Origin: Chrysomallon squamiferum
Lineage: Eukaryota > Animalia > Mollusca
Assembly: GCA_012295275.1 (NCBI GenBank)
Contig: CM022673.1
Location: 20,274,001 to 20,338,000, forward strand
Length of the DNA: 64,000 bases
Reading direction: 5' to 3'
Shown: piece after piece, positions 12,021 to 64,000 of the stretch
Numbering within the stretch: position 1 is the first letter of the stretch
Layout: the number at the start of each line of letters is the position of its first letter
Notes under the pieces: generated by a model
Told to the model about the DNA's origin: nothing
The model's input: the letters and a program-made list of their open reading frames with translations, nothing else
Database searches by the model: none
Translations under genes and position numbers: made by a program

Positions 12021-12062
<42 letters not shown>

Positions 12063-19463: not shown

Positions 19464-19548
<85 letters not shown>

Positions 19549-32689: not shown

Positions 32690-32861
32690 GCAACCAGGGT
32701 AATATAAACGTGACGTACAAACGTGTCGTATTGCCTTATTAAAATATCACCTGACGTGTCTCAGCGGACGATTCACAGAGCGAGCAGACGGCGTGGAATT
32801 TGTTACAGTTAGTTAGCTGACAAGATTCGTGTTTTACTTCGATTTGGATCCACAGGTAGGC
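32690..32861 (+). promoter_or_regulatory. Putative promoter plus non-coding first exon, module copy 2 (donor cag|gtaggc at 32855/32856)
   Basis: CpG-rich for this genome; tgacgt half-sites at ~32711 and ~32752; exon body homologous to 26240-26317. Confidence 0.5.
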
Positions 32862-39399: not shown

Positions 39400-39544
39400 C
39401 TTAGAAATGATTGTGGTTACCTTGTCACGAAGCAACCAACGCAACATACTACGTGGAAACCTGTGACGTGTGTTTTACAAATTTGTGACAATTCGCTAGT
39501 GGGCAAGATTCGAGTTTTTCTTCAATTTCCATCCAAAGGTAGGC
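39400..39544 (+). promoter_or_regulatory. Putative promoter plus non-coding first exon, module copy 3 (donor aag|gtaggc at 39538/39539)
   Basis: Homologous to 32600-32900 (gagcaagtata..aaacca, caagattcg.gttt..ttc.attt, gtaggcaaa.ccttt). Confidence 0.45.
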
Positions 39545-41688: not shown

Positions 41689-44079
41689 TGCATTTTTACG
41701 CGTTAGAAAATACACATGGTTTCGTTTCCGCCATCCCTCGTTTTCCCCATTCTCGTTATAAAAGTAACATCATATGAAAAAGCATATTCAAAATGACGTT
41801 TTCCTTTCATAAATCTAAAAACAAACTTGTTTCGGAACAAAAAAAACAAATAAACAGGTATTTAAAGTGAAAATTATTTTTCTTTCTGCAAAAGACACCC
41901 GATCAAGCATAATTCATGAAAAGAGCAATTTCTGCTTTTTCTAATAAAATAAACACGGAGATTATTCTGAACATATCACGGTGAAAATGCGGGAAGCCTT
42001 AAAAGACAGTCACTCGTTGGTCAGAAATGAATCAATCAATGTTCTCACTAAGCAAATTAATGGGAATGCGATGTGAAGGAAAGTATTAGAGATTACCTTA
42101 AACATAACTGAATGAAGTGCTGTATGACAGAAAAGAGTATTTATATATATATATAATTTTATTTAATTTTTGTTATTTATTTATGTATTTATTTATTTAT
42201 TTATTATTGTTTTGTTGTCGTTTACCTTATCTTGTTTAAAAAAGCATATATTAATAGTTTTTGTTCGAGGAAGTTGATGTTTGCTAATTCCAAGGGCGGT
42301 AATTTGTGATCACTGTGTTGATAATTTTATTTGCCTTTGACATTAGTCTGTTTCTAGTTTTAGTTTCACACACATATCATTTACCGTTATCTGTCTTACT
42401 CAAATCACAATCACACATACATGTACATATATTACCTGACACTGTATTAAAACAGTACACATAAGTGCACTGCCTTTCTGTAAAGTTACTTTGTTTTTGT
42501 TCATATCCTGGTATTTGGATTTTCTTGCTATCTAGTTATTTGGATTTTTTGGCAAAAAGAATGTGCAGTAACAATTTGTTTTCAGTCAGAACAGAGGCAA
42601 CCATGCTATCTCAATAACTTGTGTACGTATAAAACTATCATGTGACTGAAACAAGTCTTGTATTTTGCAAATATGCTAGAAAATAGAGCTGATCTATTTT
42701 TGTTAAAAGTTCATGACATTTGATTCATAACATTTTATTTTGTAAACTAACCAAATCCATGTACATTGATAATAAATAAATAAACAAAATTAAATTTTAA
42801 GCATCAGTTTTAAGTCTTTTAAAGAATTTTTGATACTTATTATTATTAATATTATTATTATTATTATTTTAAATATTTTCCTTAAATGACAGCAGTTCTT
42901 TCATAATAATAATAATAATAATAAAATAATAATAATAATAATAATAAAAGAAAGTGTATTACTTGACAATATTATTTTAAGAAGAAAGGTAAATGTAAGT
43001 TTTGTATTGTTCTGTTCACAGGACAGAAAAGTTGTATGGTCAGTTACAGACAACTGGTTTAACATACAGCAGCTAATGTCTAAAGATGGGTTAAACTGAA
43101 CTGTAAGTAAGTAAATGTTCAGTTTGTTCTTATTATTAATATTGACACACAAACAGAAGCATAAACATACACACGTACATATTTGAAATAAGAATTGTGA
43201 TTAACAGTAAACATACTAAAATTTAATATTATAAGTGTACAATTTACAGTACAAGACCGATACAAACTTAAATTTTCAAAGCTAGTCATAAGCTGGGTCG
43301 ATGTTTTGTTTTAAAACAAATTACTTTTCATTCTTGTTGTTTGTTTATTATAATTATTTCTTTAGCAGTTTTCAACCTTTACATTAAATATCTTACATCG
43401 ACTTAAAAAGCAAATTTCATATCTGTCTCTGATAATAGAAACAATAAATATCAAATAAAATTATTTTTTACCTTAGTTATCTTGTTTTCTTTGTTATTTA
43501 TTTATTTATTTATTGATTTATTGATTTATTTACATTTCAAAAAATGAAATAACAGGACTTACTGAACAGTTTATAAATGGAAATTATGGTGAATGTTTGT
43601 CATTTATTTAAAAAAGAAAAAAGTTTTATATTTTCAGTCACTGAATATTCTTAACTTCAGCTTCTTCAAATACTTAATAACTCTTTAGCAAGTATTATCA
43701 AAACTTGTAACCCCAGTTAGGTAACACTAATTTTCATCCGAAGATTTTGAAGCATAAATACATTTTTTTTTACTGATTTTGTCCTGACACAGTCTAGCAA
43801 TAAAAACGTTTGTTTCAACTGGAGCTGTGTGTTTACGTATATACATCTTCAATCTGTCAAGTTATTCATGCCCAGATATAATATAATGATACATTAAATA
43901 TATATAATATAATATGTAACACAAACATATTTTTTATAAATTCATATATTTTTATTATTATTATTTATTTACAGTCTTCACTGTTAACATTTTTCCATTT
44001 ACACAGTTAACTATTTGCCAGTAAGACCTTCGGGGATACGTAACTATTTACATCTATATTTGCCTCTATATGAATGCCC

Positions 44080-47000
44080 CCTAAGCACTTTAACTTTCTG
44101 GATAAAATGTGATGCAGCTGACTAAAACTAATAACCACTTAATAACCAAGGACCCCCTGGAGTCAATCCAGACCGCTATCCTGATACTGTATGTGGTTCG
44201 TCCGTGCCAGCCTGGCACACATGGTTGTCTGCTTATACCCCTCCTGACATTTAAATCAGAGAGTGGACAAGAGACAAGGTTCCAATCTGTAAATGCTGTA
44301 ATTAACACTAGCCCCCTCGTCAAAGTCATAGGTGCGCTGAGCAATTCCATTCGGCCTCGAAGGTGTTGCAGATTCCTCTGGCAGGCTCCCGGTGTTCCAT
44401 ACACCAGAGTGAGTCTATATCAATTCCATCTATCCATTTACCTCATGGAAACACCTTGTCCCCACCCAAAACCAACAGTTCCACTGAGCCCAGCATTGCT
44501 TCCAGATACAATGTATTTCTTTTACGTGACAAGTGCACCCAATCAGTCAAGAAGAGCTCCAGATCTCCAACTCTCATTGCAGGGTGCCCAGTTACTGCTC
44601 CTCCTTCTGCAAGGATCAGTGATTTCACTGCCCCATTCGCCGTTTCCTCAGCCTTGTCTACCTGCTTTGGGTGTTTAGATCAAGGTGAGGCAGCATGTTC
44701 AACAATATGATCCTCACACAGGGGAGGAGCGTTCAGTCGCAGGACCGAGCAAGTGACGTTCTGAATCAGAACCTTGTTTTTCATTGTCACCATGTCATTC
44801 GATCACAGCTGTAAAATGACAGTATTAGGTGGGGCTGGTGTTTCAACTTATCTAAAATAAAACTGTCTAGCTGGGACTATCGCTTTCCCCTGTTACCATA
44901 TCATTTTACCTTGATACCAGCCCACATCAAACCTAGGTTGCTTCTATCTGGCCTTGCCTGTCCTGGATTCCTGCCCACTGGACCACAGAAGATCCTGTTA
45001 TGCATATTTCATGCCTCCCTTGGGTAACCCTGATGGTGTGACATGGTTTAGTAACTCCTTGTTGCATTAATCATCCATCTAATAAAGTCTGGCCTGGTTT
45101 TAGTGCTTGGGAGGCACAATTCATGGACGCAGTTAGTGATTGCAATCTTTTTTCTTTTCTTGCGAGTAAGCTCCATACGCTGCCTTAATCCTACCTATTT
45201 CTTCAGATGTAGGCGCAATATTGTATCTATTTCTATACCGAAAAATATTTGAACCGTGCTCGGTCCCACAGTTTTCTCCTCTGCAACTGGAACCCCAAAC
45301 TTGCAACATAATGTCTGAAAACTTCCTATTGCCTTGTGACATTCATTTGACCCTGCCCTGCCCCTAAAATGAAAATCATCCAGGTAATGCAGCACAACCG
45401 GCCAGTCATGCACATACTGCCTCTCAGCTTCCCACTGAATAAGAGTAGAACACTTTTCAAACTGACTGATTCATTCATGGATAAACTCTTGTCATAGTAG
45501 TACAGATCATCCATTTTATACCCTAACAAATTGAAATCTCCTAGAAATAGTGGTAGTAGCCTTAATGCTGATTTTATATCAGCTTTTCCTAACAGGGCTC
45601 TCTCATCTACCGTCTACAGAACACACACTTGGATCAATGTGATTATTTACCAAATTTAGATTTGGTTAGGAAAGATGGTGAATAACTCTGAAGTCTCCAT
45701 TTTATGATACCAATCCTGGGGGATATTCTGAGGGTTTTAAATGGGCATTCTGTAAATTGTCCTCCCGGCCTCCCAAACAGTATCTCTTTACTTTTTTCTT
45801 TATTTTTCTTTTTTATTTATTTATTTATTTTTTAATTTTCAATTTTATTTTATTTTATTTATTTATTTTTTTTTAATCTCTGGACCCTGTGTTACACTTT
45901 TTCAATTGTTTGCATCTGCCTGCTGCTACTCTAGATTCCCGATACTGTAGTCTAAATATCTTAGTAAAACCTTTAATTATTTCCTGTGCTGCTAGTTCCG
46001 ACGTCCGCAATTTCCGCATTTGGCAAGTGTACATTTTCCCAGCATTAACTAACGCCACCCCCATCTCAGCTTGTATGAAACAGTATGTGCTGTCTGTGGG
46101 TAGGTGTAAATGAAACATCACTTTCTAGACTGCATGAAAGAACTGGTGAACTGGCGCCCAGAACTTTTCTGGCCTACTCCAGCTTGCCTCCTATACCTTA
46201 TTCCCGACATGCACAACAATAACCAGAGATCATTGTCTATTACCTACCATGAGTTTTCTTGGTGTCTAGCATTCTTTTTATTCTGACATGGTCATATACT
46301 GCTTCTGTTGGCTAACATCCTAATATCCCTTAAATATTTTAACACACTCATAAAAATCATAAATCACGAACTGCCCTTATCCTTTTTTCGGACCTCTAGT
46401 TCGTCCCCCCCTCTTCTACACAAGTTCACCTAAGCCACCTTGACTGCTTCTGTTTCATGTTCATTATTCAATACTATGGATAACTCAACATATTTCCTTT
46501 CCCAAATTTTCAGGTACATTGATCCCTATCCCGTCAAACGTACTGACAATTTGAAAAGGTAGTCGAGGTAAAATATCGATATACCCAATTTCAAAATTAC
46601 TAGTAGTATCTGACTTACCGTTTTCCATTGTTCTGTCTTGCGGGCACCAAACGGAATGAGAGGAGCTGGTCGATCAGTCATGTCGTTCCCTTCTGGAACT
46701 ACCGTGGTATCGACCATGGCCCTTCACTGTTCAGGCGGCTCTGTCGACAAAATACAAGATGTGTGGTCCTATGCTTTCGTCTTCCTCGAGTTGTCTGGAC
46801 AGACACTTTCCTCTTTTGATTTCTAGGAACGGTCTGTATTTTTTTTTAAATAAAAAAGGCTGGCTTCCAATGGATAGTTTATCGAGCAGTTGCTGTAATG
46901 ACGCTTGAATGGAAGAGACCGACTTGTGTCAGGCAGTCAGTAAAACAGTTAATGTGATAATCAGGGCAAGCTGTAGTAAAGAATGTCTGGGTCAGGCACT

Positions 47001-47125
47001 CTCTCTCACAAGCGAGGTGGTGTGTATGTCGCAGCTCTAATATTATGTTGGGCCAGTCAACTAGAGTTAATTCCATTTGGCCGCAAACCCCCCAACCGTT
47101 TACTAGTAACCACACAATTAGCTGT
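44080..47125 (-). mobile_element. Degenerate Ngaro/DIRS-like (tyrosine-recombinase class) retrotransposon: gag-like, RT and SGNH hydrolase remnants
   Basis: RT motifs AQEIIKGF..IFRLQY, LLGKADIKSA.RLLP, HYLDDF and GVPVAEEKTVGPST...FFGIEIDT. SGNH motifs ITGSSVVQWA...NLGL, VILQL*SND and LFLTDWVHLS. Many stops; no recombinase recognised. Confidence 0.8.
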
Positions 47126-47992
47126 ATGTTCTTGGCATTAAATTGGATTATTAGGTGTTACTTATAATCTGTATTATATTTACTTTAGACTAATTTTCAT
47201 TCAGTAAACTATTAAACCATTTAAAAACATTTACATTTACATTTAAGTGAAGATATATTTGTTCAAACACAATCACAATTACTGTAGAATAACTAAACGA
47301 AATAACTTTAGAACATTTTTTCTTTCTTCAAATTTATGAATGAGAAACCGTTTTTCAAAAATAAATAGTAAATAAAGAAAGTCTGTGTCAGTATGATAAT
47401 GGCTGCACTATTTATAGATGTTACTACTTGTTGGTAGTTTGTCGAGATGAAGTTTCAAACACAGCAAACAGGAAATGTCTGTACATTAAATGTCTGAAGT
47501 GATCAAGATTTGGAATGAAAATTTAGAAGATTCCTGAAAATTGAAGTCTACAAATTCTCAAAGTATGTTTATACAGACACAATAGAGAAGAATGATTACA
47601 ATATTTATTTAACAAATATAACAGTCACCCTCATTTGAACTATTAATATGTTCATACTGATTTATTCCAAAAATCTAACACTAAAAACACATTCCACAGT
47701 ATGGAGCTGCAGAGTTTCTAAAATAGTTTAAGAAATCTATTTCAGAGAGAAAATGTTACTTTGAGTCTCTAGATTACATCTGTAGTTAAATAATCCAGTG
47801 ATAAGTAAACATTCAACTGCCTTCAGCACCCACTCATTTCTCGAGTTAAAAGTTGTATTTGTTAAAAGTTCAACTGAAGTCATTCCCAGTTCTAAGTTGA
47901 TTCCACTTCCAATGTATCTAAAATGCTGACTGATATCCCAAATGTGCTCCAGTGGATTCAAAACTGGACTCATGAATGCCAAGGCTGAAGAG

Positions 47993-50578
47993 CAGTGCTG
48001 CCCAACGTCCGGCCCACGAAGCCTTAGAATCCGGCCCGCTAGTCGGTCTTCAATTTATTCCTTAACATTAACGCAGACGCTTACTACTGTTATTTTTCTT
48101 CGATGATGATTGGCTACTAAATCAATAGTTTTCAGTTTGAAGAATGGAGTAGCGTTATGTCTAAAAATAGAGTGTTTGCTGACATCGAAAAATTGATAAA
48201 AAGTGAAGTATCACAGAGTGTACGATTGATTGATTCGGTCGTCCATTCAAAAGCCTGAGAGCGCTCACCTCAGCCAGTTGAAGACGGACTGCTGGCAAAT
48301 TACCATAGATATTTCAATAGAAAAAGCTGAACTTTTTACCGTTTCTTATTGAAATATCTATGGCATTTTACACCGGGGCGCGCACGCCACAATAATCTAT
48401 CGTGGTTGAAGGTGTCGTTTTTTTAGGAATAATATCACGTGACTTTTCCGCATCAATAAAACTGGCATTTGAGGTGGTATAATTTCAAATTTACTCAGGC
48501 ACAACTTTTGATACGGAAGCCTTCTTATACCGATGAGCAAATTACAGTAGTTTCTTTTTCACAATAAATTTCAAATTTTGTTCATCCATGGCGTCGGCTA
48601 GAAAAATCAGAAAAGTAGACAAGGAGGACCGCAGGTTTAACGAGGCGTGGACAAATTTGTATTTCTTCGTGGAATCAAATGCAAAATGTCTCTGTCTGAT
48701 CTTTGGTGAAACAGTCGCAGTTCCAAAAACGGCATTACACATTAAAGCACGCTTCGACCGTAATCATTATGAAGGAGATCAACACAAGGGGAAAGCACTT
48801 TAACTTCAAAGGAATTTAGTCTCGCAACAGAATATTTTTCGGAAAATAGACGATGGATCGAAAAAATACGCCAAAGTAAGTTTCGTCATTGCTGAAAAGA
48901 TTGCACGCAACATGAAACCTTTTTCGGAAGGAGACTTTGTCAAAGAATGTATCACCTCGGCGAATGAAATTCTGTGCCCAGAGAAAGAGAAAGCTATAAA
49001 ATGTGTTAGCTTGTCGCATAATACAATAACCCGAAGGATGGAAGAACTGCCCGAAAATACGAAAATGCAGTTGAACGAACTTTGTAAAAACTTCGAACGA
49101 ATCTACTGACATGACTGATACACCACAACTGGCGATTTTCGTGAGAGATGTTGATTCACGTTTTAATATCACTGAAGAATTACTCGTTCTATGTCCCATG
49201 AAAGGAAAGTTCACAGGTGCTGTTTTCAAAGAAATCGATACTGCACTCGAAAAGGCGGGACTGACTTACGATCGCCTGGTTAGAATTGCTACCGATGGTG
49301 CACCGGCCATGATCGGCAAGGAACAAGGTTTGCGTGGTTTCATCCAAAGAAAACTGGAATCCCTGAATGTGAGTAAAGACCAAATATTGTGGTACCATTG
49401 CATTATACATCAGGAATCACTTTGCTCCAAAATCATTAAGTTTGATCTCGACATGGATAATGTCGTGGAAGCTGTCAACTTCATTCGGTGTCGTGCATTA
49501 AATCATTGACAGTTTCGAAATTTTCTCGATGAGATAAACGCCGAATTTTCTGGCATTCCTTACTTTACCGAGATCAGGTGGCTCAGCCATGGACGTACTT
49601 TGAAACGCTTTTACGATATTCGAGAACACGTGGCAGCATTTTTTGAAGCAAAACTTTCGTTGCCTTCAGGAACAGTCGCACATTTCAGCCATAAACCGGG
49701 AATTCTTTGTGAGCGAGTTAAAACGGATGCAGGAAGAATTTGCCAGGAGATTTAAGGAGTTCCGTGCTTGTGAAGACCAGCTGAAAACTTTTTCAGTGCC
49801 TTTTGACGTGGATCCTGCTGATGCCTCCGTTGAGCTTCAAATGAAATTGAATGAATTACAAAGTGACTGTCAAGAGTCAGTTTTTAAATAGGAATCTGAT
49901 GGACTTCTACAAATACGGTCTGCCTCACACTCAATATCCAAATCTTACTTGCTACTAAAAACGTTTTCTCGTTTTGTTCGGTTCGGCATGCAATTAGTAA
50001 AATCGAACAAAAGAAATTCTTTGAGTGATGGTCATCTCGAAGATGGACTCCGACTGGCTTTAACAAATATTCCGGCAGACATTGAAAACCTTCTTGATGA
50101 CTCGAAACAATTTCAAGTTTCTCACTGATATTTTCGTTCATTACCGGTATACATCTAAATAAAATAGTTTTATTATTGAAATACAAAGCCATTTATTTGA
50201 ACAAATGTTTTTTTTTTTAATCTTGATCAATTGTTAAATTTGTTTTATAGAATGTAAGGTTCTAAATCAAAATTTTTAATGGTCATTTCGTATTCATGTA
50301 ATATCTGGAGACTATAATTTTTTGATAGCAGTGAAGAAGTAATAGAAATAGTATCATATGTAGGACCCCTATGTATAAATTGAGTTATGAATTATAATTG
50401 TATAATGGATAATTTCTATAAATAGAATAATAGAATCAATGTTTTCAGTTCTGAATACTTTATCAAACCATTTCAAGTAGCTGTATTAAAAAATGAAAGG
50501 CTAGAAATGTGAGTCCGGCCCACTGGCATCGTTTTTTCTTAAATCCGGCTCATGTTCGGAAAAGGTTGGGCAGCACTG
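47993..50578 (+). mobile_element. hAT DNA transposon (Charlie/SPIN/Buster-type), both ends intact
   Basis: 14-bp perfect TIRs cagtgctgcccaac / gttgggcagcactg; perfect 8-bp TSD ctgaagag at 47985-47992 and 50579-50586; subterminal tccggcc repeats. Confidence 0.95.
48588..50130 (+). pseudogene. Frameshifted hAT transposase (GTF2IRD2/Charlie-like)
   Basis: RRFNEAWTNLYFFVE..KCLCLI, KPFSEGDFVKEC, VSLSHNTITRR, TDTPQLAIFVR, IATDGAPAMIG, HCIIHQESLC and RWLS, spread over several frames with deletions. Confidence 0.9.
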
Positions 50579-50749
50579 CTGAAGAGTTATAGTATTGGTT
50601 TTGATGTAGAGTGCTGGAGGTCACTAATGAACTGATTACTGTAACCGTAGTCAAGCTGATGTGTGTAGGTTTGAATGTATCTAAATAAAACTATTCTGAT
50701 ATTATTTATACATTAATATTGTTTATGTGACATAATTTACTAAGCCGAG

Positions 50750-50965
50750 CAGTATTGTTCATATAACTTAGTAAAAGTATTTGTATGTTATATTTATATT
50801 TGTATTGTTTATATAACTTAGTAAAACTGTTTGTGTTATATTTATATTTGCATTGTTTATATAACTTAGTAAAACTGTTTGTATGTTATATTTATTTTCG
50901 TATTGTTTATATAACTTAGTAAAACTATTTATATTTATAAACTTGTATTATTTATATAATTTAGT
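50750..50965. repeat. ~47-bp minisatellite (about 5 units)
   Basis: tattgtttatataacttagtaaaactgtttgtatgttatatttatatttg repeated. Confidence 0.9.
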
Positions 50966-51469
50966 AATAGGATTGAGAAAACTAAGAGAGGAATTGATTC
51001 TAATACTTTTTATATGATGCCTGACATGAATCTGAATCCTGAAATATCTGAGCTGATCCAGCTGAGACAGTGCACGGATTTAGTCATTTACAGTGATTTC
51101 TGTTCTGTTGATTTTTGCCATGTATATTTGTAATGTATAAAAGAAAAAAAAAGGAGTAAATCCAAAACAAAATAATTAATTAGAACTACGTTTTTACATA
51201 ACAGTATTGTGAAATAGTGCTTTCATGAGAATTTTTAAATAACATAATCTAACAGCTCAAATTAAAAAAGTATTTATTAAAACCTTTTTCAATTGATTAC
51301 GTTTGAAAAATGTTCGAAGCATATATTTGTAGAACAAAAGTTGAGAATACAGTCTATAAGTGTTAATACAAGGTACTAAATGTAGGTCTCTAGTAAGTGT
51401 GCAAGGTGGTAAGTATTTGGATCAATTCCTTCTAATGGAATCTTGAACTGTTTTGATTTTAGCAGTGCT

Positions 51470-51670
51470 TATCAGCTGATGAATGAAATAGTGTGTACTG
51501 TCTGTGGGTAGGTGTAAATGAAACATCACTTGTTGTTAATAAGAAAGAGTAGACTGTGAAGTGACTGCGGTGGGTTTCTTCTTTTGTTATCTGACTGTTC
51601 CTAAATCTTATGTATGATCCCATATAACAGTAAATAAAATAAGTAAATAAAACATTTCGTTTCTTCCTTC
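51470..51670 (-). mobile_element. Interspersed SINE-like repeat fragment
   Basis: The core ctgtctgtggg(g)taggtgtaaatgaaacatcactt also occurs at ~46090-46124, inside the Ngaro-like remnant. Confidence 0.5.
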
Positions 51671-51709
51671 TACATAAAAAATAATTATATATTTTACAGC
51701 TCAACCAAT

Positions 51710-51821
51710 ATGGATAAAATATTTAAGTATTCAGGACGTCCTTCATTTCTTTCTCGCCTGGATAAACAAGTTAAAGAAGATGCAAAACGTCGCGTACTAC
51801 AACCTGCGTCAAGGAGTTCTG
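51710..51821 (+). CDS. First coding exon of the STAND-ankyrin gene (MDKIFKYSGRPSFLSRLDKQVKEDAKRRVLQPASRSS)
   Basis: Acceptor ttttacag ends at 51699, ATG at 51710, 37 open codons + 1 nt, donor g|gtaata. Phase 1, compatible with the downstream exons. Confidence 0.6.
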
Positions 51822-52422
51822 GTAATACACACAGTATTTCAATATACTGCTTACTTTTTTGATAGGAAATTGTAAACATTCAAAGTTATTTGTATATTTG
51901 TAATAACAGAATATTTCAATATATTGTTTACTTTATTGATACACTTGTTTCAATATATTATTTAGTTCCATCGTAGTCATTCGTAAACACAAGTCACTGT
52001 TTCATTACTTCATCGTGATTATAATTATAATTATAATTAGCCTTGTATTTACTGTTACACATTTTAATACTGTAAAGTAAGGCTTATTTCATAGCACCTG
52101 CACATAATCAGTCAAAACATTTTAAAATCATATATTGTGATATGCAATAATACTTTTAATAGATTGTATTAATACTGTATCCTGTCCTTAAAAATGTATT
52201 CACTCTGTTTCACAAATAGTCAAATAATACTTGTACAACCAACAGTAAACATACATCACTGTGAAAAATGTTCAGTTAGGAGTCGAAAACAATTTAATTG
52301 GTAAATTGAAAACTGAAAATGTTCAGTTTCTGTACATGTTTAATATATAATATAATACACATTAGTGCTTTTCTGTCTCACTGTGATCTGAACAACATGC
52401 ACACGTGACCCACTTTCGTTAA

Positions 52423-53383
52423 AGGAGACGAGTCCAAATTCTGAGATATGAATATATTTAGCATTCACATGAAATATCCTTTCCAATATATGATGCATGT
52501 ATCTTTGAAGTTGTAGCAGTTTCTGATACTGATGTCACCAAGTCATCACAAGAAACACATTTGTCAAAAATCCCGTGTAAACATTTATAAGTAGCCTCCA
52601 ACAGAAAACCCAACCAATAACTTGCTGAAACGTTCACGAATTTTATATCATAAAATTAAAAAAACTCTTAGTAATGGGTTAAAAAATTGTAATTCTTAAA
52701 CATGTTATGAAATATTGCACTTCAGTATAGTAATAAAATTGATACTTCTAGTAAGTATTTCGTCTAAAGGCTGTTTTTAATCTGTCTTTGACCATGCCTT
52801 TTAGTATTTGGACACACACATTTATTGTAAATTTGATGGACATTCTGTCCTGTTCTGGTGCCCATAATCTTACTGGATGTAACCTAAAAGAGCAGTGAAC
52901 TACACAAGTAAAACCGAATTACCAGACAAGCTCACTCAGTAATTATTCAGAAGTCATTCTACTGCAGTGCTGACCTTCTAGCAACTACATGAGAAAACTA
53001 CTTATTTTTCTTTAAATCAAACACTGACTAAAATTCTTGACACCCATTAATGTTGCCCAAAATACAAAGCCCACTTGCCATATGTGACTTGTATCAACCA
53101 ATAACCAATACACTATCCAAGGATTCTGTTATCTGTTATTCTCTGCGATTAGAAATGTTTTTACTCACGTTTGTTTTTAGACACTGCTTCTAAAATCATC
53201 ATTTTAAGTATCTTATCATGTGAATATCCATGTTTTAACATTTTGAATTAAAATCTACGTACTGATGCAGTGATCTCATTTTTTATATTTTATACATTTT
53301 TTTTTTTTTTTTTTTTTGGTTATCTTATCTCACTGTTCTACAAAGTCAGTTGTTCATAATCAGGTCATAATGATATGTCTCCT
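52423..53383. mobile_element. Non-autonomous TTAA-flanked TIR element (Kolobok-type MITE candidate)
   Basis: ttaa|aggagac ... gtctcct|ttag; AGG/CCT termini; no ORF. Confidence 0.45.
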
Positions 53384-53526
53384 TTAGCAATAGCTGGTGA
53401 CGTATGCAAAAACATGCACACATAAACACACAAACATACATTTTTGATACATGTAGCTACATACAGTTTTAGAAATAACACTTGTAGATTGTGAATTTAA
53501 ATAATTTATTTTTCTATTTGCCGCAG

Positions 53527-53583
53527 CACAAACAGTGGTAGAACATAATGTAAATATTAGAACAGATAAAAAAAATCTATCAA
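53527..53583 (+). CDS. Possible 57-nt symmetric (phase 1-1) exon of the STAND-ankyrin gene
   Basis: Acceptor tttttctatttgccgcag; open frame AQTVVEHNVNIRTDKKNLS; weak donor a|gtaaag. Confidence 0.3.
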
Positions 53584-54712
53584 GTAAAGAAATACTGTAT
53601 CAGGAGACGAAGCTGTGGAAACTGAAGCATACTTTATAGATAACAGAACTATGTCAAATTAATCGCTATAGTATATGACCAACACAAGCGAACATAGACA
53701 AAATACATAAATACATACATATGTACATGTCTACAAACCACCAAGGGCGCACAATTTGTGCGAACGACTGTTTAGTTTACATGAGGGTTGTCCAAAACCA
53801 TCCTTGCTTGGCTCATTTTCTTTCACGCACATTTTTTTGCTATGCTGAATGACAGTTTACTCATGGTTAAAATTAAACTGCCATTCACCAAACCAACAAC
53901 GTTGGCCTGAGTTCTATTAGGAGACAACAACAATTTAATTAGTATGTTGAAAATTGAAAGTGCTCTTTTGCCTGCCTGTTTAACAGATAACAGAATGCAC
54001 ATCACAGTACTCATTAGTACTTTTCTACGAGACACTCTAATCTGAACAACGTTCACACAGACACAAACATAGACATACACCCAGATACATACACCCAGAG
54101 ATGCAGAGATTTAATGTAAAGATTGTACAGCTTTTTTAAAACATACTGTTTTATTCAATAATGCTAACAAATGACAGATTTTATTCAAACTGTGCAGTAG
54201 ATGCTCTACATATGGATCCGACAAATAATAGTTGTAAGTTGTGAAATTGAAAAATTTGAACCTGAAGCATTCAGATTAGAACAGTCCCATATGGAAAATG
54301 TCATAACAGATGTTAATGCTGCCAAACAGAAATTTAAAAATTCCCAAGTTTGTGAGAGCTTGTACAATTTGAAGAAATTGAAGTCATGGACTACCTAGCA
54401 GTGCTTATAATTTGTAACTGTTTGAAGTTTATGATTTGAGTACAAATGTTTCTTAAATAATAATAATAATAACAAATGTTATTGCCAGCGCGGTTTTGTT
54501 AGCGCACTTTTGTCTTATGCGCTCAAATATACATACAAGAACACACGAACACACAGACACACATCACATCACACACACACACAGACACACGCCCAAATTG
54601 TAAGTATCAACACTCTTACCTAGATTTTGTTATTAAGATAATTCAGCATAAATTAAACAAGCCAATATATCTGTCAATATATCGGTCATTATTAAAATAC
54701 AGTACGAAGAAC

Positions 54713-54751
<39 letters not shown>

Positions 54752-54975
54752 TGAACAATAACAATAACTAAGTAACAGTAGTGAGAAAAAAATCCAGTAG
54801 TTTTAATAATAGTAAATAAATAATTATAGTAAAATAGATAAAGATATAATAATAATGTTATATGGTGACTGTTCCATGAATAAAGTACAGAGTAACTGTA
54901 CAGATCACTTTAATCGTTCTCTTTTACTCATCATCAGTAATATAAACTTACTTATTTTATTTTATATTTTTTCAG

Positions 54976-55008
54976 CAAAGACTGATGGACGAGCACCCAA
55001 AATCAAAG
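54976..55008 (+). CDS. 33-nt symmetric micro-exon of the STAND-ankyrin gene (AKTDGRAPKIK)
   Basis: Polypyrimidine acceptor tttttcag, donor aag|gtattt. Phase 1-1, in frame with 55283. Confidence 0.6.
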
Positions 55009-55282
55009 GTATTTCTTGTTTTGTTTCTTTCTTTTTGTATTTACTTCTGAAAGATGTCAATTTATAAGAAGATAATTATCACGTTACTTTTGCATTTAAA
55101 ATTGTTACATCTTAATGATGTCATTAAATTCTGATGAACTAAAATTATGACAAAAACTGCTGTTTTATTTTAAAAACTTCATATCTGATGAGTAGTTAAA
55201 AATTATATTATTTATATTTAAATAGTAAAATATATTTAAAATATGTTATAATAGATGTCAATTTTTTAATTTTGTGTTACAG

Positions 55283-58200
55283 AGTCACTATTAAACTCAG
55301 TTGACAGCAGTGCCTATGTTGAAACAAGAGCAGAAAAAAGAGGTGTAGCACTTTTGAAAAAGAATGGTATTGTGATTATAGTAGGAAGTCCAGGTTCAGG
55401 AAAGACAACTCTAGCTTTGAACATGATTAAACATATAGCCAAAGAAGAAAAAAGAGGATCTTACATCGTGACTCATCACTCTGATTTCAAATTCGTCCCT
55501 GTATTGCTAGAAAAAACATGTATTCTCATTGATGATATATTTGGTAAAACTAATCTTGTATTAAATTTTGTGTCGTGTTGGGAACTGCTTTTTCCGAAGG
55601 TGTGGAGTCTTGTTGAGAATCAGCGTGTGAGATGTATTATTACTTTAAGAAAACAAATATTTGCAGAAGTTATAGACAGGCTGAAGGAATTTGATCTGTT
55701 TAATGAAAATCATCTCCTTGACCTGCAGAGTGATGAATATTGTCTGGATGGAGATGAAAAGAAAGAAATTCTAAACAAATATCTTGAACAAAAGATTGTT
55801 ACAATGGATCAAGATGATAAAGAGACTGTCATTGCTAGTTCATGTACAGAGTTAGGATTTCCTCAGGTGTGTGTGTATTATGTTAATTCAAATGATGCAC
55901 AAAAAAGAGGTGTTAAATTTTTTGAGAAACCTGTAGAATATCTCCGACAAGAGCTGGAAAATTTGATAAAAGATGAAACTTTACAGCTCAATTACCTAGT
56001 TCTGCTGCTGATCATGTTTCAGCAAGGCAGTCTCAGCATCGATTCACTGGACTCATCTGAAAATGACATTGATAGTGACATAATGAAATTAATAAGACTG
56101 CTAGAGCGAGTCTGTCTAAGTGTAAAAAACACTGACGTTAGAGATATAAAGAAAATAGCTGATGGAATGTGTGGTACCTATTTGAAGTGTGGCGACAACA
56201 AATACACATTTATTCACCAGTCAGTGTTTGACTCTTTGTTTCTGGTGTTTTCATCACAGTTTCCAAAGAAAGCAGCAGAGTTGCTAGAATTGTGTCCTGT
56301 CTCCATGTTGTTAGAATATGTTGTGACGCCTGGAGTGTCTAACAGAAGTCACATTACAATGACTGTTAGATCTGACTGCTTTGATGTTCTTGCTCGCAGA
56401 TTTACTGACCTGATGGCATCAAGCAATGCCAAAGAAATTATTTCACATCCATCACTGAAAGATGAAGAGTTTGTGAAGTATCTCATAGAGGAAAAATACT
56501 TTAATGATAAATTGTCTGAAATACTGGAGCAAACACTACATGAACATGCAGTTACATATTTTAAAATATCATCTGTAAATGTAGACACTGCTGATGAAAT
56601 ATTTAGCACTATTTCATGTCTTCTTGACAGTGATTCAGAGTATCATTCTAGTTACATATGGCAGTTGCAAATTGAACACATACGGATAGTTTTATTATCT
56701 GTTCCAAGTTGGTGTACTGTGAATGGAATAAGAACATTGTCAAGATTTTTCGCAGAACAACTGTGTAAAATGAAATTAAAAGATCTGAAGAAAGAACTCT
56801 TGCATGTTGCTTGTTGGTTTGGTGATGAAGATATTGTGAGAATGTTGCTAAAATCAGGCATTATTCCACCTTTTGATATACTGAGTGCAGCTGCTTGTTC
56901 AAAAACAGACAGTGTTACCATAATCAAAGAACTGTTACGGTGTAAAAAAGCGATGGAATTGAGTGAATATTCACATCTCTTACTTGTTTCTATTTGTTCG
57001 TGTAACATGAAGATTGCATGTTTTTTAGCTGACATCATAAAAAATGAGAAACACACCAGTGAAATCAAGGAAAAAGCCATTAAAGTGTTATTGGTTAGGT
57101 TCCTCAGACGAGTAGTACTTGAATCAGATTTCAATATAGGTGACATATATTTGGAGATTTCTGAAGTTGTTGATGTAAGCCATGTTTTTAGGAAACTGGT
57201 TACCATTGATACTATAAACAAAATTGAAGACATTGCTATCATTGCTGCTTGTCAGAGTACTTCAAGTGTTTTAAAAGAAATAGTAAAACTGAAACCTGAT
57301 TGTTTAAATGATGATAACAGAGATAAAGTACTTTTAGCAGCAGCAATATGGGGAGTCGCTGATACAGTGAATTTTCTCATTGAGCAGAGATGTAATGGTA
57401 CAGATGAGAACAACTGGAAGAAAACTCAAGTACTGAAAGTAGCAGTGATGTTTAACAGTGCAGATGTTGTTCAGTGTCTTCTTGATAAAGGAGCAGATCC
57501 TAATGTGTATGTAGCTGTTAATGAGAAATTGATGAAGTTGTATAAAGAGGAAACTATATTAAAACTGCTGTCTGATCCAAATAATATTAGCCAGAAAGAA
57601 GATCTGGTGTTTTTGGAGATATTCAAATCTGAATTGAAAGAGTTGTTTGAAGATAAAACTGAATTGGATCTGTTTCTTGAAGATAAACTGTTGATTTTAG
57701 AATCACCTCTTCACATTTCAGTTCTGCGTGGTGACTTAGATATGATAAAATCACTGATAGAGAGAAATGCTAATGTTAATGCAGTAAACAGTGAGGGAGA
57801 AACTCCACTTCATCAAGCTGTAAATACAGTGACACACGGAAAGGAAGTAGCTTTGTTGTTACTGGAAAATGATGCTGATATCAATTTAATGGATGACGAC
57901 AAAAATTCAGCATTGCACATAGCATCCCTAATTGACATAGATGTGGTGAAAGAAGTAATAGAAATGGGTGTTGAAATAAATGCAATTAACACTAAAGGGA
58001 AAACTCCTCTTCATTTGTCCTTATATCATAACAGAACAGAAATAGCTTTATATTTACTGAACCATGAGGCTGATCCTAATTTAACAGACAGTAATAACAA
58101 TTCTGCTTTACACTTTGCAGCTGAACACGGAAATGTAGAAATTGTGACAGCTCTGATTGAAAAAGGTATTGATGTAAATATAAAAAATGATAAAGGTGAA

Positions 58201-59541
58201 ACTCCTCTTATTACAGCTTTGAACTCTGATAAGAATAAAGTAGTTTTGATTTTACTGAACCATCCTAATTTAACAGACAATGATAAGAATTCTGTTTTAC
58301 ACTTAGCAGCTGAACATGGAAATGTAGAAATTGTGACAGCTCTGATTGAAAAAGGTTTTGATGTAAATATAAAAAATGATAAAGGTGAAACTCCTCTTAT
58401 TACAGCTTTGAACTCTGATAAGAATAAAGTAGTTTTGTTTTTACTGAACCATGGGGCTGATCCTAATTTAACAGACAATAATAACAATTCTGTTTTACAC
58501 TTTGCAGCTGAACATGGAAATGTAGAAATTATGACAGCTCTGATTGAAAAAGTTATTGATGTAAATATAAAAAATGATAAAGGTGAAACTCCTCTTATTA
58601 CAGCTTTGAACGCTGATAAGAACAAAGTAGTTTTGTTTTTACTGGATCATGGAGCTGATCGTAATCAAACAGACACTGATAATAATTCTGTTTTACATCA
58701 AGCAGCTAAACAAGAAAATCTAGAACTAGTGACAGTACTGATTGAAAAAGGTTTTGATGTAAATATTATAAATGGTCAAGGTGAAACTCCTCTTCTTGGA
58801 TTTCTGAATTATTACAATGATCTTTTTTACAAGCATCCAGCTGTGTACTATGAAAATAAAATATGTTCTTATTTACTGGAACATGGAGCTGATCCCAGCT
58901 TAACTGACAGTTATAACAATTCTGCTTTACACCTAGCAGCTAATCATGGAAATATGGAAATTGTGACAACTCTGATTGAAAAAGGTGTTGATATAAATAG
59001 TAAAAACTGTAAAGGTGAAACTCCTCTTTTAATAGCTGCTAACTGTAAACATAAAGTAATTTTGCATTTACGGGAAGAAGCAGATTATCTCAAATTAGCA
59101 GACGCTAAGGATATGTTTTTACACCTAGCAGCTAGAATTGGAAATATGAAAACTGAGGGAACATTGGATGAAATAATATCGGAACAAAATATTAAAAACA
59201 CAAGACATGAAAAGCCTATTTATTTGGCTATGACTTACATCAAATATTTTCTCAAACATGCAGTTGTGTACTGTCATAATAACAAAATAGTTTTTTATTT
59301 ACTAGAAAAAGGAGCTGATCCTAATTTAACAGACAATGATAACAATTCTGTTTTACACACAGCAGCTGAATGTGGAGATACAGAAATAGTAAAAGCACTG
59401 ATTGAAAAAGGTGTTGATGTAAATGTTGTTAACTCCAGTGGTGAAACTCCTCTTGACAAAGCTAAGAGTTGCAGATTTCTTTATAGCAAAATGGAAATTG
59501 TATCGTATTTATTGGAGCATGGTGCTAAAGATAGTGAATAA
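55283..59541 (+). CDS. STAND-class P-loop NTPase (nSTAND3-like) with C-terminal ankyrin repeats; main exon
   Basis: Acceptor tgttacag ends at 55282. YVETRA...IVIIVGSPGSGKTT (Walker A), ILIDDIFG (Walker B), IITLR (sensor-1-like), LGFP (GxP), FIHQSVFD (winged-helix/MHD-like), then degenerate and canonical ankyrin repeats (GETPL, SALHxAA.HG..EIV..LIEKG.DVN). Open for ~1419 codons. Confidence 0.92.
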
Positions 59542-61453
59542 TGTTTGATATGAAACTGAACTTTTCAATTTAGTACATTATATACACAGAGAGTATACAC
59601 AGACTGTCACTTTAAATGGAAGGTTAGCTAGTGAGAACATTTTAAAGTTGTGCAGAAATAACATTTTTGTATAAAACTGATGTTCATAATAAAATAATTG
59701 TTGTGAAGAAATCTAAATTTTGTTTGTAATGTCTATGATACAAAGTTGAGGTTAATGTTCTACTTCATGCTGAAATACATTGATTTCTGATGTAGTTTCA
59801 GTTTGAACTGCTTCATTTGTGCTTATTTTTGATATTATGTTGTGTCAGTGTATTTAGTTGTATTAAATACTATGTACAGTTATATTTTTTAATTCAAAAG
59901 TATAATTATTGATACTTGAGCCAGACCACATATTCAAAATAAAATTTGTGAACTAATTCATTGTGATGAAGAATTAAATCCAGTGTAAGTTTGTGTAACT
60001 ATATTGCTGTTTAGTCTAGTTACTGTAAATTGTTTCTGTTCAGATATTCCATTACTGTACTCTGCTCTTTCTGTTAAAATATTGTACACTCATATCTTGT
60101 GTAGTTTTTGTTTATATACAAATACTGTATTACTATATTTTATAGCTGCTGTAGCTATTCAAACTATTTTATTCTCTACCGTATTTGTACACAACAAAAA
60201 ATATTGTAATACCTGTACCTTTATGAAAATTTCACTTCATTTTTAATTTTCATTGAAAACGTTTGGAGTATTTATTGCATAATTCCATTTAAAAAGATGT
60301 TAAGATATATTTGGTTTCCCAATAATAATAAAACAACAGTAATGCTATGTTACTTTTGATCAGGTTATTCAGTAAGTGAGAAGTCAGGCACTTTTTAAAT
60401 CAGATTTGTTATATTATTCATTATTAGTGGTGTTGCTATTAGACTATTCATGTGTGAACATATTGCTTAAATAGGATATTATAATTAAAGTTGTGTTTTA
60501 AAGTTGAAATTTTTAATGTATATTTTTTGTTTGACAAAATTATTCTGGATTACTAAATACTTACATACATTAATGTTATGTAAAAGTGGTTTTATTTACT
60601 ATGTTTATACTAAGTAAACTTGTATTTTCACTTGGAGTTTATATATATTTTTGTTTCATAAAATGTTTATTTTGTTCATGTTTTTAATAAATCAATTTGT
60701 ATTTTAAAGTAAAATGTAATTTGTAATATATATATATATATATTAAAAATAATTATATATATAATTTCTTTCTTAATAAATTGTTCTGTGGTACTATATG
60801 TTTTACTACGTCTATATACATATTACAGTTTATTCTTCATTGTTAATGTCATACAAAAGAAAATATCTGAATGTTACTGTTATTAAGTAGAAGATACATT
60901 TATATATTTTTTCATTTGATTAAATTACCATTAGAAAAGAGAAAGTAATAAAATTTATAAAGCAAATGTAAAACTTCATTGATCTGATATTTTTTACATT
61001 TAACTTTAATAATTACAAAATAGTGAATAATTAATAAAGTAAACGTAAGTAGGAATATTTTTAGTTAATCATGTTTACATTTATTTAATAATTGTAAAAT
61101 AGTGAATAATTAATAAAATAAATGTAATTTTAAATTAGAAATATTTTTAATTAATAATATTTACATTTGTCTGTTGAACTATGATTTTGAAGTTAAACTG
61201 ATTAAATTTCTGATAAAATTTTAATACTATCTTTATTTTATTTGTAAATAACTTGTATCAAACTACGTTTCTTTCTTTCTTTTTTGTGAGTAGTTATTAT
61301 TTTTATTAAAAAAATATTTTGAGGAATGTATTGGTCTTACATTGAATGATTGTCTTATATAAATATCTTGTATTTTTTTGCCTGTCTTGATGATTGTTTC
61401 CACTCAGAAATTATTTTCTGTTTTAATGATTTATTTTATTGTGTTTGTTGCCA

Positions 61454-61494
<41 letters not shown>

Positions 61495-61799
61495 ATTGAT
61501 GAATGAAAAAAGCTTTATAATGATCTCCTTTTAACTTACTCGTTTATTTTTGAATTATGCAAAACAGAAAGTATTGTGTAATGTGCTAACCTTTGCTGGT
61601 TATGTCACTATTACATAAACAATGTATGAAATGTGTCAGTTTATGTATAGTTTTAATACACTGATGTAAATATATTTTTTTTAATACAGTGTTTGTAATA
61701 CTTGGCTATTATATACAATTAATATTTTTCATACATTTATTTTATTTTCATACACTGAATAAGAAGACAAAGAATGTTTTAAAAATATGTTCATATTTA

Positions 61800-61853
<54 letters not shown>

Positions 61854-62598
61854 TGGGAATATATTTATTTATCTAATTTTACGCCAATCTATTTAATCAT
61901 TACATATACTGAATGAATTTAAATAGCAAATACTTGTATTTATTTTTAATTACACTGATTATCTGTTTTTCATATTTTATTTGCATGATAGAATGTTTTT
62001 ACTATTTTCATTTTGTGTATCAACTAACTTTACATCAATCTTCAACTTACTGTTTTACTATTAACCATTTCTGTAATTATATGAGTACCCATATAAGTAA
62101 ACCTTGAGTGTAAAGGTCCATAAAATTGCTAATGTTTTCAAAAAGTGATTAATAAAACTAATTTTATTATTTTGTAGGCTAAAAGAGAAATATAATACCT
62201 TATTAGTGTGTGTGTGTGTGTTTGAGACAATATACCATTGTTAAATGAGTAAGTACTAAATCTGAATTTTGTTGAAATGAATTAATTTAGAGTTTACTGT
62301 TTCACTAATTTCTTTTACATTTTTGTAGTTTTTATTATTTATTATATATATATATATATGTATGTATGTATGTATATATATATATTATGGTAACGGTAAT
62401 TATTATTATTATTAAATACGGAGTATATTGTAACGCCATTAACAATTAATATAATAAATATGCTTTATAAATTGTAATCACTTTTTTATTATTATTAAAT
62501 GCTATATTTCCTGTATTCAAGAAAAACACAGTGCAATGGAATAATGCATTGTACAAGTTCTTGTGACATCCTCTGGCATCCAATAGTGACATTGTGTT

Positions 62599-63203
62599 TG
62601 TGGCAGAGACAACAGTCTCCTCTTAAATATGTAACAATCATATAAGCTAAGTGCGACGGACACGCCCGCTGACCTGTCAGAAAGCGTGCCCTTCGTAGAC
62701 GTGCTTCACAACAGCTTGCTCTGATTAGCACGTTAATGTTTTTCAAGTTCAAGTTCAAGTATAAGCTAAGTGTGACAGAGAGTAACAGTCTCTTGTTTAA
62801 TATGTAGTAGATGATAGATTTCTTTAAGAATTATATAAGCTATGTGTGACGGAGACTAACATGTTTAATAATAATAGATGTTAGATTTCCTTAAGAATTA
62901 CATAAGCTATGTTGAGGTGTTGTTTTGGCTGACCCTTTGGTGTCTGTGTGTCTGCTAAAGTTCCAACCAGTCTTGACTCCACTCTGGGACAGCAGTGTTA
63001 AAAGACTCCCTCTGTGGTTTTTCGTTGGTAATAAAAACAGAGATCGCATTTTGGTTGAGGCTATTAGTTTTACACCGTACAGGACAGACATGTGGTTAAC
63101 TGTAGCTGGACAGTTGTATAGATCCAACTGACTTAGATAACTATAAGTTTTTACGGCTCTGTTTAAGTAACTGAAAGGTAGTTATCTAACAAATACTGTT
63201 TAA

Positions 63204-63249
<46 letters not shown>

Positions 63250-63832
63250 CATAACCATTAGTTGGAGATTATCTGGTAATCTGATATGAGACCGATCAAA
63301 GTAAACTGTAGTTGTTATCTCTAAAACAACGGCTGAGAATAGCTGGGAATTTGACCATTAGTAATTGTAAACATAGATACCTTAACTGACTATCATGTCA
63401 ACGTTCTGTTAAGTAGTATTTTGATATACTTGCATATTCAAATACATCCTGAGGTGTGCTATTTTACCTTGAGGGATAAACATATTTAATACCCCTCATA
63501 TGTTTACTTATGTTGTGAGTGTAATTTTGTGTCGTGAAACTGTTTGTAATCGTAAGCTTACGCGGTAAATACCTATTATTAGACCGTATAACATATATAT
63601 TCTTTCAATCTAAACTGGTGGCGTTGTGTTTCTAGTGATTTAATGTTGACTAAATATAAATACATACATGACCTTGTACCCTGAATTGTTAGAGCCGATC
63701 CAAATCGGTTAGCAGACTACCTGATTCAGGGAGGTTTGTATGTATATGTAGTGTTGGTCTGGCGGAAGAGTTTTAAGCCCGTTGCGGGGTTCTGATTTGG
63801 TTACGGGACGATTGTGTTAATTACGAGTAAGA
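62599..63832. mobile_element. Second copy of the solo LTR, right terminus deleted
   Basis: Same left junction gtgtt|tgtggcagagac; right-hand gtgtt at 63833-63837; the last ~30 bp of copy A are missing. Confidence 0.7.
62654..62759 (+). mobile_element. 5'-truncated non-LTR retroposon/SINE insertion with 13-bp TSD
   Basis: TSD tataagctaagtg at 62641-62653 and 62760-62772; GC-rich body; 3' tail (ttcaag)3; absent from copy A. Confidence 0.8.
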
Positions 63833-64000
63833 GTGTTACGTAGCAGTGAGTCTGGTAACTCTACTATTGGACTGTTCGAAACAAGTAAATTGTGGAGTGT
63901 TTTAACTGAAAAAAAACAGACATTAGTTTCTTCATACAGGAGAATAAGTAAATTATTTATGCATATTCTTACATGTTCCTGCATCTCCGTATCACTTAGA

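Follow-up and report, generated by a model that had tools for sequence, protein, structure and literature searches.

A STAND NTPase with an ankyrin sensor and candidate RHIM exons, broken as assembled, in the gastropod Chrysomallon squamiferum

A gene of Chrysomallon squamiferum encodes a STAND NTPase, as judged by its sequence and its modelled fold, joined to an ankyrin-repeat sensor; between its short candidate upstream exons lie a segment that matches the RHIM family once a one-base frameshift is bridged and a decayed look-alike of that segment. We analysed the gene within a window of 64,000 nucleotides (positions 20,274,001 to 20,338,000 of contig CM022673.1, assembly GCA_012295275.1), whose numbering is used throughout. 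The explanation that we favour, and hold tentatively, is that this copy encodes an NLR-type intracellular immune sensor belonging to a many-copy gastropod family of RHIM-amyloid receptors; its own RHIMs are dead, and it would signal in trans or serve as a decoy.

Results

Most of the gene is a single 4.26-kb open exon, exon D (55283–59541, + strand), which ends with the stop at 59541 and lies within an open frame of 1423 amino acids (55270–59541, +). Its first part (55283–56290, +) encodes the STAND core, comprising an nSTAND3 NTPase, a helical domain with a GFP motif and a winged helix with an FIHQS motif. In Pfam, nSTAND3 (PF20720) matched at 88.8 bits against a curated cut-off of 27.2 (E = 4e-25; model positions 1–154 of 155), whereas NACHT stayed below its cut-off (18 versus 26.7 bits, P-loop only) and NB-ARC was absent among the 25 families listed out of 38. 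All tested STAND motifs, those listed by the earlier note among them, were present on the + strand: Walker A (GSPGSGKT, 55384–55407), Walker B (ILIDDIFG, 55522–55545), the sensor-1-like arginine (IITLR, 55636–55650), the GxP motif (GFP, 55855–55863) and the winged-helix histidine (FIHQS, 56209–56223). The K, D, R, GFP, F and H of these motifs were conserved in at least 90% of 84 aligned sequences.

The AlphaFold2 model of the core (mean pLDDT 89) shows the NTPase, helical domain and winged helix of the STAND class. The top three structural matches were all STANDs, namely NRC2 (Z 14.5, rmsd 3.8, 272 aligned), MalT (Z 14.4, 5.3, 323) and 6mfv (Z 14.2, 4.9, 303); DnaA came after these (Z 12.6 over 199), and further matches included NLRP9/3, Avs5 and Apaf-1. 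Sequence searches of the PDB returned P-loop noise or ankyrins and nothing else. The Pfam score and the structural ranking together led us to reject a non-STAND ATPase, and the earlier note's assignment to nSTAND3 rather than NACHT or NB-ARC stands.

Downstream of the core come a helical linker and degenerate repeats (56291–57690, +; the model is helical to about residue 430, the remainder being assigned from sequence), then an ankyrin array of about 15 clear repeats (57691–59541, +). Pfam ankyrin families matched down to E = 1e-128, in agreement with the ankyrin sensor noted earlier. The array includes a two-repeat unit of 198 nt (period 198, 3.8 copies); three of the 66-aa units are 93–94% identical in DNA and 86% in protein, the other units 44–56%, and one unit is shortened. 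From these identities, the 198-nt unit appears to have been amplified recently. High internal repeat conservation, defined with T-REKS as units at least 70% alike, is enriched in NLR-like proteins according to PMC13449251, a pattern that the amplified units may fit, the 86% applying to three units only.

Upstream of exon D, four short candidate exons could supply the N-terminus. Exon A (51700–51821, +), the candidate first coding exon, starts at ATG 51710 with A at -3 and G at +4, contributes 37 codons and ends in a phase-1 donor; it has AG/GT ends and a GC content of 0.39 against 0.24 in the following intron. Exon B (53527–53583, +; 57 nt, phase 1-1, AG/GT ends) is open and frame-preserving, with a predicted peptide that is short and beta-strand-like, then basic. 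B′ (54198–54233, +; 36 nt, donor GTAAGT), a further candidate phase 1-1 cassette, likewise reads as open and frame-preserving. Exon C (54976–55008, +; 33 nt) encodes the start of the helix preceding the NTPase. Exons A, B and C are mutually frame-compatible, and joining A, B, C and D across AG/GT ends gives an in-frame product of 1487 amino acids, with 78 residues N-terminal to nSTAND3. RNA contigs of related copies contained the C–D splice junction in three of three runs, and exon C contributed exactly 33 letters to it. Rfam had no match over 46000–64000. The intact spliced reading frame, the short N-terminus devoid of a folded effector and the phase-1 cassette exons (the donor of A; B and B′) proposed by the earlier note were thereby recovered.

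That note had also described no death-fold, TIR or enzyme domain, and none of 141 upstream plus-strand frames of at least 40 aa had any Pfam match above cut-off, RHIM in these unshifted frames included. These 141 are a subset of the 187 frames in 20700–55269; the subset excludes 21 frames of low complexity, 21 with a start before 25395 and 4 more. tblastn with 78 N-termini of relatives found only a microsatellite match, a search for short, close relatives that could bear the N-terminus gave 23 candidates, none of them a hit at E ≤ 0.001, and no effector gene adjacent to the studied gene was found in the window. It is very improbable, on our assessment, that the RHIM-like segments are irrelevant and that signalling relies on the short peptide of exons A and B or on an effector exon further upstream. 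The reading frame of exon A stays open as far as its acceptor, which leaves room for an extension by a phase-2 coding exon upstream, and the N-termini exchanged among relatives include caspase, Death, SAM and HEPN domains; against this stand the empty frames and the tblastn result, and the likely upstream exon at 43022–43102 has stops in all three frames. The exon A peptide had no Pfam match and no usable ESM Atlas match, leaving the suggested signalling through an A/B peptide without support.

Between exons A and B, a motif scan located R1 (52246–52300, +), a candidate cassette exon of 55 nt that encodes a RHIM with the core VQLG and is flanked by AG at 52244–45 and GT at 52301–02. Its length is one base over a multiple of three, the extra base lying in a run of five A (52264–52268). 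Read with X at this one-base frameshift, R1 matched Pfam RHIM at 22.1 bits (E = 1e-4, cut-off 20); its unshifted frames had no RHIM match. Alternative acceptors lie at 52219 and at 52162, use of the second bringing in an in-frame ATG (52194), and all three start/acceptor choices tested stop ahead of the NTPase in the assembled sequence. A second segment, R2 (53878–53941, +), is 70% identical in DNA to R1 plus its downstream intron (nhmmer E = 1.3e-5) and is likely a decayed twin of it. R2 carries a 10-nt insertion and AA where the acceptor AG is expected, while its donor GTATGT is kept; it had no Pfam match when read with X. Going by these two lesions, neither of them a homopolymer slip, R2 is clearly dead, and RHIM-type exons therefore do decay at this locus. 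Including either segment as assembled brings an early translation stop, whereas skipping both keeps the frame and gives the full protein.

A chance RHIM match at R1 was rejected by arithmetic: E = 1e-4 over 24,736 models corresponds to about 4e-9 per model, and with about 1.6e5 possible one-base-shifted peptides in the 3.2 kb that separate exons A and C, about 7e-4 matches are expected. R1 also sits where amyloid motifs sit in RHIM–NACHT–repeat proteins, as these are described in PMC4262963 and PMC12881547. Among relatives, Pfam RHIM matched none of 14 hand-picked RHIM-like stretches and none of 28 whole proteins (E ≤ 0.01), phmmer of R1 against 77 N-termini gave a best E of 0.07, and a 17-row profile of the relatives' stretches, one row of it mis-anchored, ranked R1 only fourth on its own strand. 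Two RHIM-like patterns occurred in 8 of the 77 N-termini (shuffle mean 1.8; 1 of 1000 shuffles as high) and in 3 of the 77 (mean 0.7; 37 of 1000), both weak signals from patterns written post hoc. Metagenome scans gave 125 pattern matches by protein, none of them confirmed, and no match to the R1/R2 DNA pattern. The claim of no recognisable N-terminal effector is thus only partly correct: it stands for folded domains in the frames covered, but it overlooked what is probably the signalling element of the family, present here as R1 and its decayed look-alike R2.

One-base homopolymer indels are a classic assembly error. Only slightly less probable than the favoured reading is that the extra A in R1 is such an error and that the locus encodes an intact RHIM–nSTAND3–ankyrin receptor nucleating amyloid itself after ligand-induced oligomerisation, like the fungal amyloid NLRs. 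This is the only lesion of R1 and falls in a homopolymer, the donor, acceptor and RHIM residues being intact; with the additional base removed, R1 has the 54 nt and phase 1-1 borders of a cassette matching those around it, and a repeat near 10.4 kb of the window likewise has one A too many in a run. Against an error, exon D spans 91 homopolymer runs of at least 4 with no frameshift, which speaks against a high local indel error rate, although selection of the gene for intactness biases this observation; R2 is truly decayed; and the nearest R1 acceptor has a poor pyrimidine tract. Either way, absence of an effector is not part of the receptor's original design: its RHIM is lost or is kept behind an assembly error. 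The favoured reading, of dead RHIM exons in a copy still in use, presumes that the R1 lesion is real.

The nearest relatives are proteins of the vent snail Gigantopelta (43–48% identity), and in a FastTree phylogeny built on 55 of 130 well-covered rows, the query nests among eight Gigantopelta proteins with SH-like support of 100. The family comprises 1030 representatives at E ≤ 0.001. In three RNA runs of one study, 942, 623 and 875 contigs were placed on 5.3 kb, mostly 85–95% alike and up to 16 at one site, and 90, 55 and 71 contigs were at least 99% alike. Many variants of the family are expressed; a single-copy conserved gene was rejected on the contig variants and the 1030 representatives, in keeping with the multi-copy invertebrate family inferred earlier.

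The exact studied copy was not seen in the contigs of the three runs: at sites such as 55457, 55911 and 57927, all contigs in all runs carry another letter. We consider it unlikely that the gene is a recent duplicate fading away, with dead RHIM exons, a transposon upstream, little or no expression and a long exon still free of stops. Consistent with fading are these unmatched letters at well-covered sites, a hAT insertion that lies about 1.1 kb ahead of exon A and still has its target-site duplication intact, the absence of three codons that expressed copies have where exon D begins, and the shortened ankyrin unit. Codons that differ from the contigs (40 of the 888 listed sites) number 7 for synonymous and 29 for non-synonymous changes, close to the neutral 27%, so purifying selection is not visible, but this ratio is also compatible with diversifying selection, and the runs may derive from a sister species or from animals without this copy. 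Against fading, every catalytic motif is intact, contigs at least 99% alike exist in every run, and the 4.26-kb frame has no stop, although 5% neutral divergence would predict about 7 (an open frame has a probability of 0.06 at 2% divergence and of 0.001 at 5%).

Discussion

From STAND proteins and fungal amyloid NLRs, we infer a family mechanism, together with its immune role, ligand, oligomer, amyloid and partner. The ankyrin array would hold the NTPase shut, ligand binding would allow nucleotide exchange, and the NTPases would then oligomerise, such that clustered N-terminal RHIMs would template amyloid on a downstream RHIM protein and thereby drive cell death or inflammation. Because its own RHIM exons are broken as assembled, the studied copy would signal through relatives that keep theirs; it probably yields a RHIM-less sensor whose signalling would depend on co-assembly with RHIM-bearing relatives, or which would damp them. 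Signalling in trans, which the earlier note had raised, is the leading but unproven reading. Sensor–helper NLR pairs are represented by NAIP–NLRC4 and by plant sensor NLRs with NRC helpers. By analogy only, they resemble this arrangement, in that a sensor lacking its own signalling domain nucleates a signalling-competent relative.

Amphioxus BF82280 and fungal NWD2, as presented by Kajava et al. (2014, PMC4262963), share with the studied gene the order of short amyloid motif (a candidate one here), STAND NTPase and repeat sensor; the studied gene has nSTAND3 instead of NACHT, an ankyrin sensor and a gastropod host, and its RHIM lies on small cassette exons and is broken as assembled. Fungal amyloid NLRs such as PNT1 with its PP/RHIM motif (PMC12881547) have a comparable RHIM-like N-terminal motif, and NLRs with high internal repeat conservation (PMC13449251) have ankyrin or TPR sensors of similarly near-identical units. 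Unlike these proteins, the studied gene belongs to an animal, and no adjacent effector gene was found within the window. Bacterial Avs5 (Sir2–nSTAND3–TPR; 10.1101/2025.07.08.663546) shares the Pfam NTPase family with conserved Walker A and sensor arginine, and its chains match the model at Z 11.4–11.5 with only 10–14% identity; the studied gene differs in having no Sir2, ankyrin rather than TPR and a canonical DD Walker B. Neither Sir2 nor TPR had a Pfam match in the gene or the 141 upstream frames, and none of the 14 PADLOC matches was an Avs model, the best being PDC-S73 over the P-loop region. The gene also departs from canonical animal NLRs in its sub-threshold NACHT score and in having an ankyrin sensor in place of LRRs. 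The same core occurs in mollusc nSTAND3–ankyrin proteins (Gigantopelta aegis, Haliotis, Mytilus, Mizuhopecten, Potamilus, Solemya), which databases name "uncharacterized" or ankyrin-like; none of those tested matched Pfam RHIM, and their N-termini vary among a membrane anchor with disorder, caspase, HEPN and short forms.

Knowledge of amyloid-based NLR signalling comes mostly from fungi, with a predicted case in amphioxus. A RHIM on an nSTAND3 receptor would add molluscs to its range, and with them the NTPase family to which bacterial Avs5 belongs, and the studied locus suggests that a signalling motif can be gained or lost as a cassette exon with the sensor untouched. More speculatively, and on balance improbably in its full extent, snails might run a large expressed amyloid-signalling network of nSTAND3 and fast-shuffling ankyrin proteins, missed by NACHT-based NLR surveys, in which RHIM cassettes undergo duplication, retention or inactivation separately in each copy and RHIM-less sensors trigger RHIM-bearing helpers, possibly in symbiont management. 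NLRs of molluscs are counted with models of NACHT and LRR, and the numbers are low, Aplysia having four NACHT proteins, one with LRRs, in PMC9334734. Such counts pass over a many-copy, expressed nSTAND3–ankyrin family, which could make up much of what is missing from the picture of intracellular immunity in snails.

An nSTAND3-ankyrin receptor gene

The window has the base composition of AT-rich animal DNA and carries a single long open reading frame (55270-59541) encoding 1423 residues. Pfam analysis of its protein covered the whole nSTAND3 model at 88.8 bits against a cut-off of 27.2, whereas the NACHT match was confined to the P-loop (18 bits versus 26.7), and ankyrin families matched strongly. 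An earlier note, made from the sequence alone, had described an NLR-like receptor with an nSTAND3 NTPase and many ankyrin repeats. The domain identity was borne out, the sensor comprises ~15 clear repeats, and the Walker A, Walker B, GFP and FIHQS motifs lie where the note had placed them; these motifs and a sensor-1-like arginine, likewise confirmed, are kept in at least 90% of 84 aligned sequences. Three two-repeat ankyrin units share 93-94% DNA identity. The AlphaFold2 model of residues 1-472 was confident (mean pLDDT 89), and its best structural matches were STAND proteins (NRC2, Z 14.5; MalT, 14.4; an archaeal STAND protein, 14.2), followed by DnaA (Z 12.6), NLRP9, NLRP3 and Avs5; Foldseek gave a comparable mix. 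The receptor gene is real and the anatomy first described for it stands.

Exons A (51700-51821), B (53527-53583), C (54976-55008) and D (55283-59541) splice in frame into 1487 residues, 78 of which precede the NTPase, in agreement with the ~70-90 residues originally proposed. Transcript support is limited to the C-D junction, found in 3/3 RNA runs of one study in contigs of related copies; in every run their C portion is exactly 33 letters long, and they begin D with 9 bases more than the window copy. A folded effector upstream was sought in 141 of 187 frames, and none of these 141 plus-strand frames exceeded the cut-off for any Pfam family; when 78 N-termini of relatives were compared with the window DNA, a microsatellite was the sole match. 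That the receptor signals through the peptide of exons A and B, or through an upstream domain that escaped notice, is rated very improbable.

A RHIM exon, broken as assembled, between exons A and B

A motif scan of the A-B intron identified a RHIM cassette exon, R1 (52246-52300), bounded by AG (52244-45) and GT (52301-02). R1 measures 55 nt, one above a frame-preserving cassette length, and the surplus base sits in an A5 run. With X at the frameshift, R1 exceeded the Pfam RHIM cut-off of 20 bits, scoring 22.1 (E=1e-4); neither unshifted frame gave a Pfam RHIM score. By an arithmetic estimate, fewer than 0.001 such matches would be expected by chance over all one-base-shifted peptides from A to C. 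The claim that the receptor has no recognisable N-terminal effector fails, because a RHIM exon, albeit broken as assembled, can be recognised within its gene. A decayed look-alike, R2 (53878-53941), shows 70% identity to R1, counted together with the downstream intron; it bears a 10-nt insertion and AA at the position of R1's acceptor, and gave no Pfam match with X. Inclusion of R1 as assembled (three start/acceptor choices) or of R2 leads to a stop at codon 40-81; if both are left out, the reading frame continues intact into the NTPase.

The R1 frameshift is probably genuine. Exon D spans 91 runs of at least four identical bases with zero shifts, and R2 displays real decay. Against this, the lesion is a lone indel within a homopolymer and R1 is clean elsewhere, a repeat near 10.4 kb also carries an extra A, and exon D's clean record is biased by the gene having been selected as intact; on these grounds an intact RHIM receptor masked by an assembly error is a possible, if somewhat doubtful, reading.

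Other elements of the window

A hAT-type DNA transposon (47993-50578), whose terminal inverted repeats measure 14 bp and whose 8-bp target-site duplication is exact, lies ~1.1 kb upstream of exon A; its transposase is broken, with a weak DUF4371 match below cut-off. A 60-bp segment occurs at 46066-46123 and, just upstream of exon A, at 51472-51531 (90% identity). Three first-exon-like units with GT donor ends (26240-26317, 32770-32855 and 39450-39538), the latter two alignable with each other, stand among duplicated upstream segments (27.4-36.6 kb) and are possibly alternative promoters of the receptor gene. A candidate non-coding exon (43022-43102), interrupted by stops in each of the three frames, has a strong donor, GTAAGT; its partial copy (28929-29062) is followed by a copy of the DNA immediately upstream of R1 (29370-29436), together perhaps a relic of a paralog's 5′ end.

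A GC-richer block (44106-44710) holds two overlapping open frames (190 and 132 aa) that gave no Pfam match and is likely an inserted element. Two adjoining minus-strand frames (13215-14026; 181 and 100 aa), with no Pfam family above cut-off, are possibly a mobile-element remnant. A tandem gene-like unit encoding a highly charged peptide is present twice, with 49 (9061-12504) and 14 (17707-19970) units of a 42-bp repeat; the first array is broken in frame in 8/44 intervals, the second has a downstream ORF with a one-base loss, and neither yielded a Pfam family above cut-off.

Expression and selection

In the three RNA runs, 942, 623 and 875 contigs, short and from metatranscriptomic libraries, aligned to 5.3 kb, mostly 85-95% alike and up to 16 deep at one site. 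Such a spread suggests that many copies or alleles are expressed. At several well-covered sites the window's letter was absent from every contig, so the contigs do not demonstrate expression of the window copy. Among the 40 best-supported of 888 differing sites, 7 codons were synonymous and 29 non-synonymous (27% synonymous expected at random). The differences thus appear neutral or diversifying, with no purifying selection visible in this comparison, as a fading copy might show; the receptor frame is nevertheless stop-free, which is improbable past a few percent neutral divergence, and we regard fading as unlikely.

Relatives and known systems

A representative protein search returned 1030 clusters at E≤0.001. 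The closest proteins, sharing 43-48% identity with the query across the core, belong to a vent snail, Gigantopelta aegis; in a FastTree phylogeny of 55 rows the query nested among eight of them (SH-like support 100), with named Haliotis and bivalve proteins outside, a placement that makes a gastropod related to Gigantopelta the likely host. Two Gigantopelta relatives, P0002 and P0003, have a hydrophobic, membrane-anchor-like stretch (residues 1-26) and ~350-400 low-complexity residues between it and the NTPase, and another relative, P0011, is a double receptor in head-to-tail order that contains two nSTAND3 domains. Among 28 relatives picked for long N-termini, Pfam placed a caspase, a Death and a SAM domain (one each) above cut-off, a Death, a DED and a HEPN domain (one each) below it, and no RHIM; one Mytilus relative has a clear HEPN. 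RHIM-like stretches are visible by eye in several relatives, and the pattern occurs in 8/77 N-termini versus 1.8 expected, a post hoc enrichment. Since 0/14 stretches matched Pfam RHIM and a profile built on these stretches failed to pick out R1, a RHIM common to the wider family is suggested at most.

Published work already describes an amyloid motif-STAND-repeat layout in fungi and amphioxus (PMC4262963) and treats nSTAND3 and high-internal-conservation repeats across kingdoms (PMC13449251). In the text examined, the Gigantopelta genome paper includes ankyrin proteins in its expanded families related to immunity and names no NTPase (PMC7895826), a survey of Aplysia uses NACHT to count NLRs and makes no mention of RHIM (PMC9334734), and a further study treats, of the nSTAND families, nSTAND1 and nSTAND2 only (PMC8195603). 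Our full-text literature search found no mollusc nSTAND3-ankyrin or RHIM-nSTAND3 receptor described; supplementary domain-architecture tables may list the layout. The window receptor differs from canonical NLRs in having neither NACHT nor LRRs and from Avs5 in having no Sir2; its working mode is likely akin to that of amyloid-signalling NLRs.

A model for the receptor family

Established STAND biology and the amyloid NLRs of fungi (PMC12881547, PMC4262963) indicate that a RHIM-STAND-repeat protein senses through its repeats and, with exchange of nucleotide, forms an oligomer that templates amyloid on a partner. For Avs5, which shares nSTAND3, immunity is reported to depend on the residues of Walker A and on an arginine that is conserved (10.1101/2025.07.08.663546). 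Their equivalents are intact in the window receptor. In the receptor family, sensing by the ankyrin repeats would lead to nucleotide exchange, oligomerisation and templating of amyloid on a partner. Sensor-helper arrangements offer an analogy for a RHIM-less sensor alongside RHIM-bearing relatives, and the leading, though tentative, reading of the window copy is such a sensor, which would act via these relatives or damp them.
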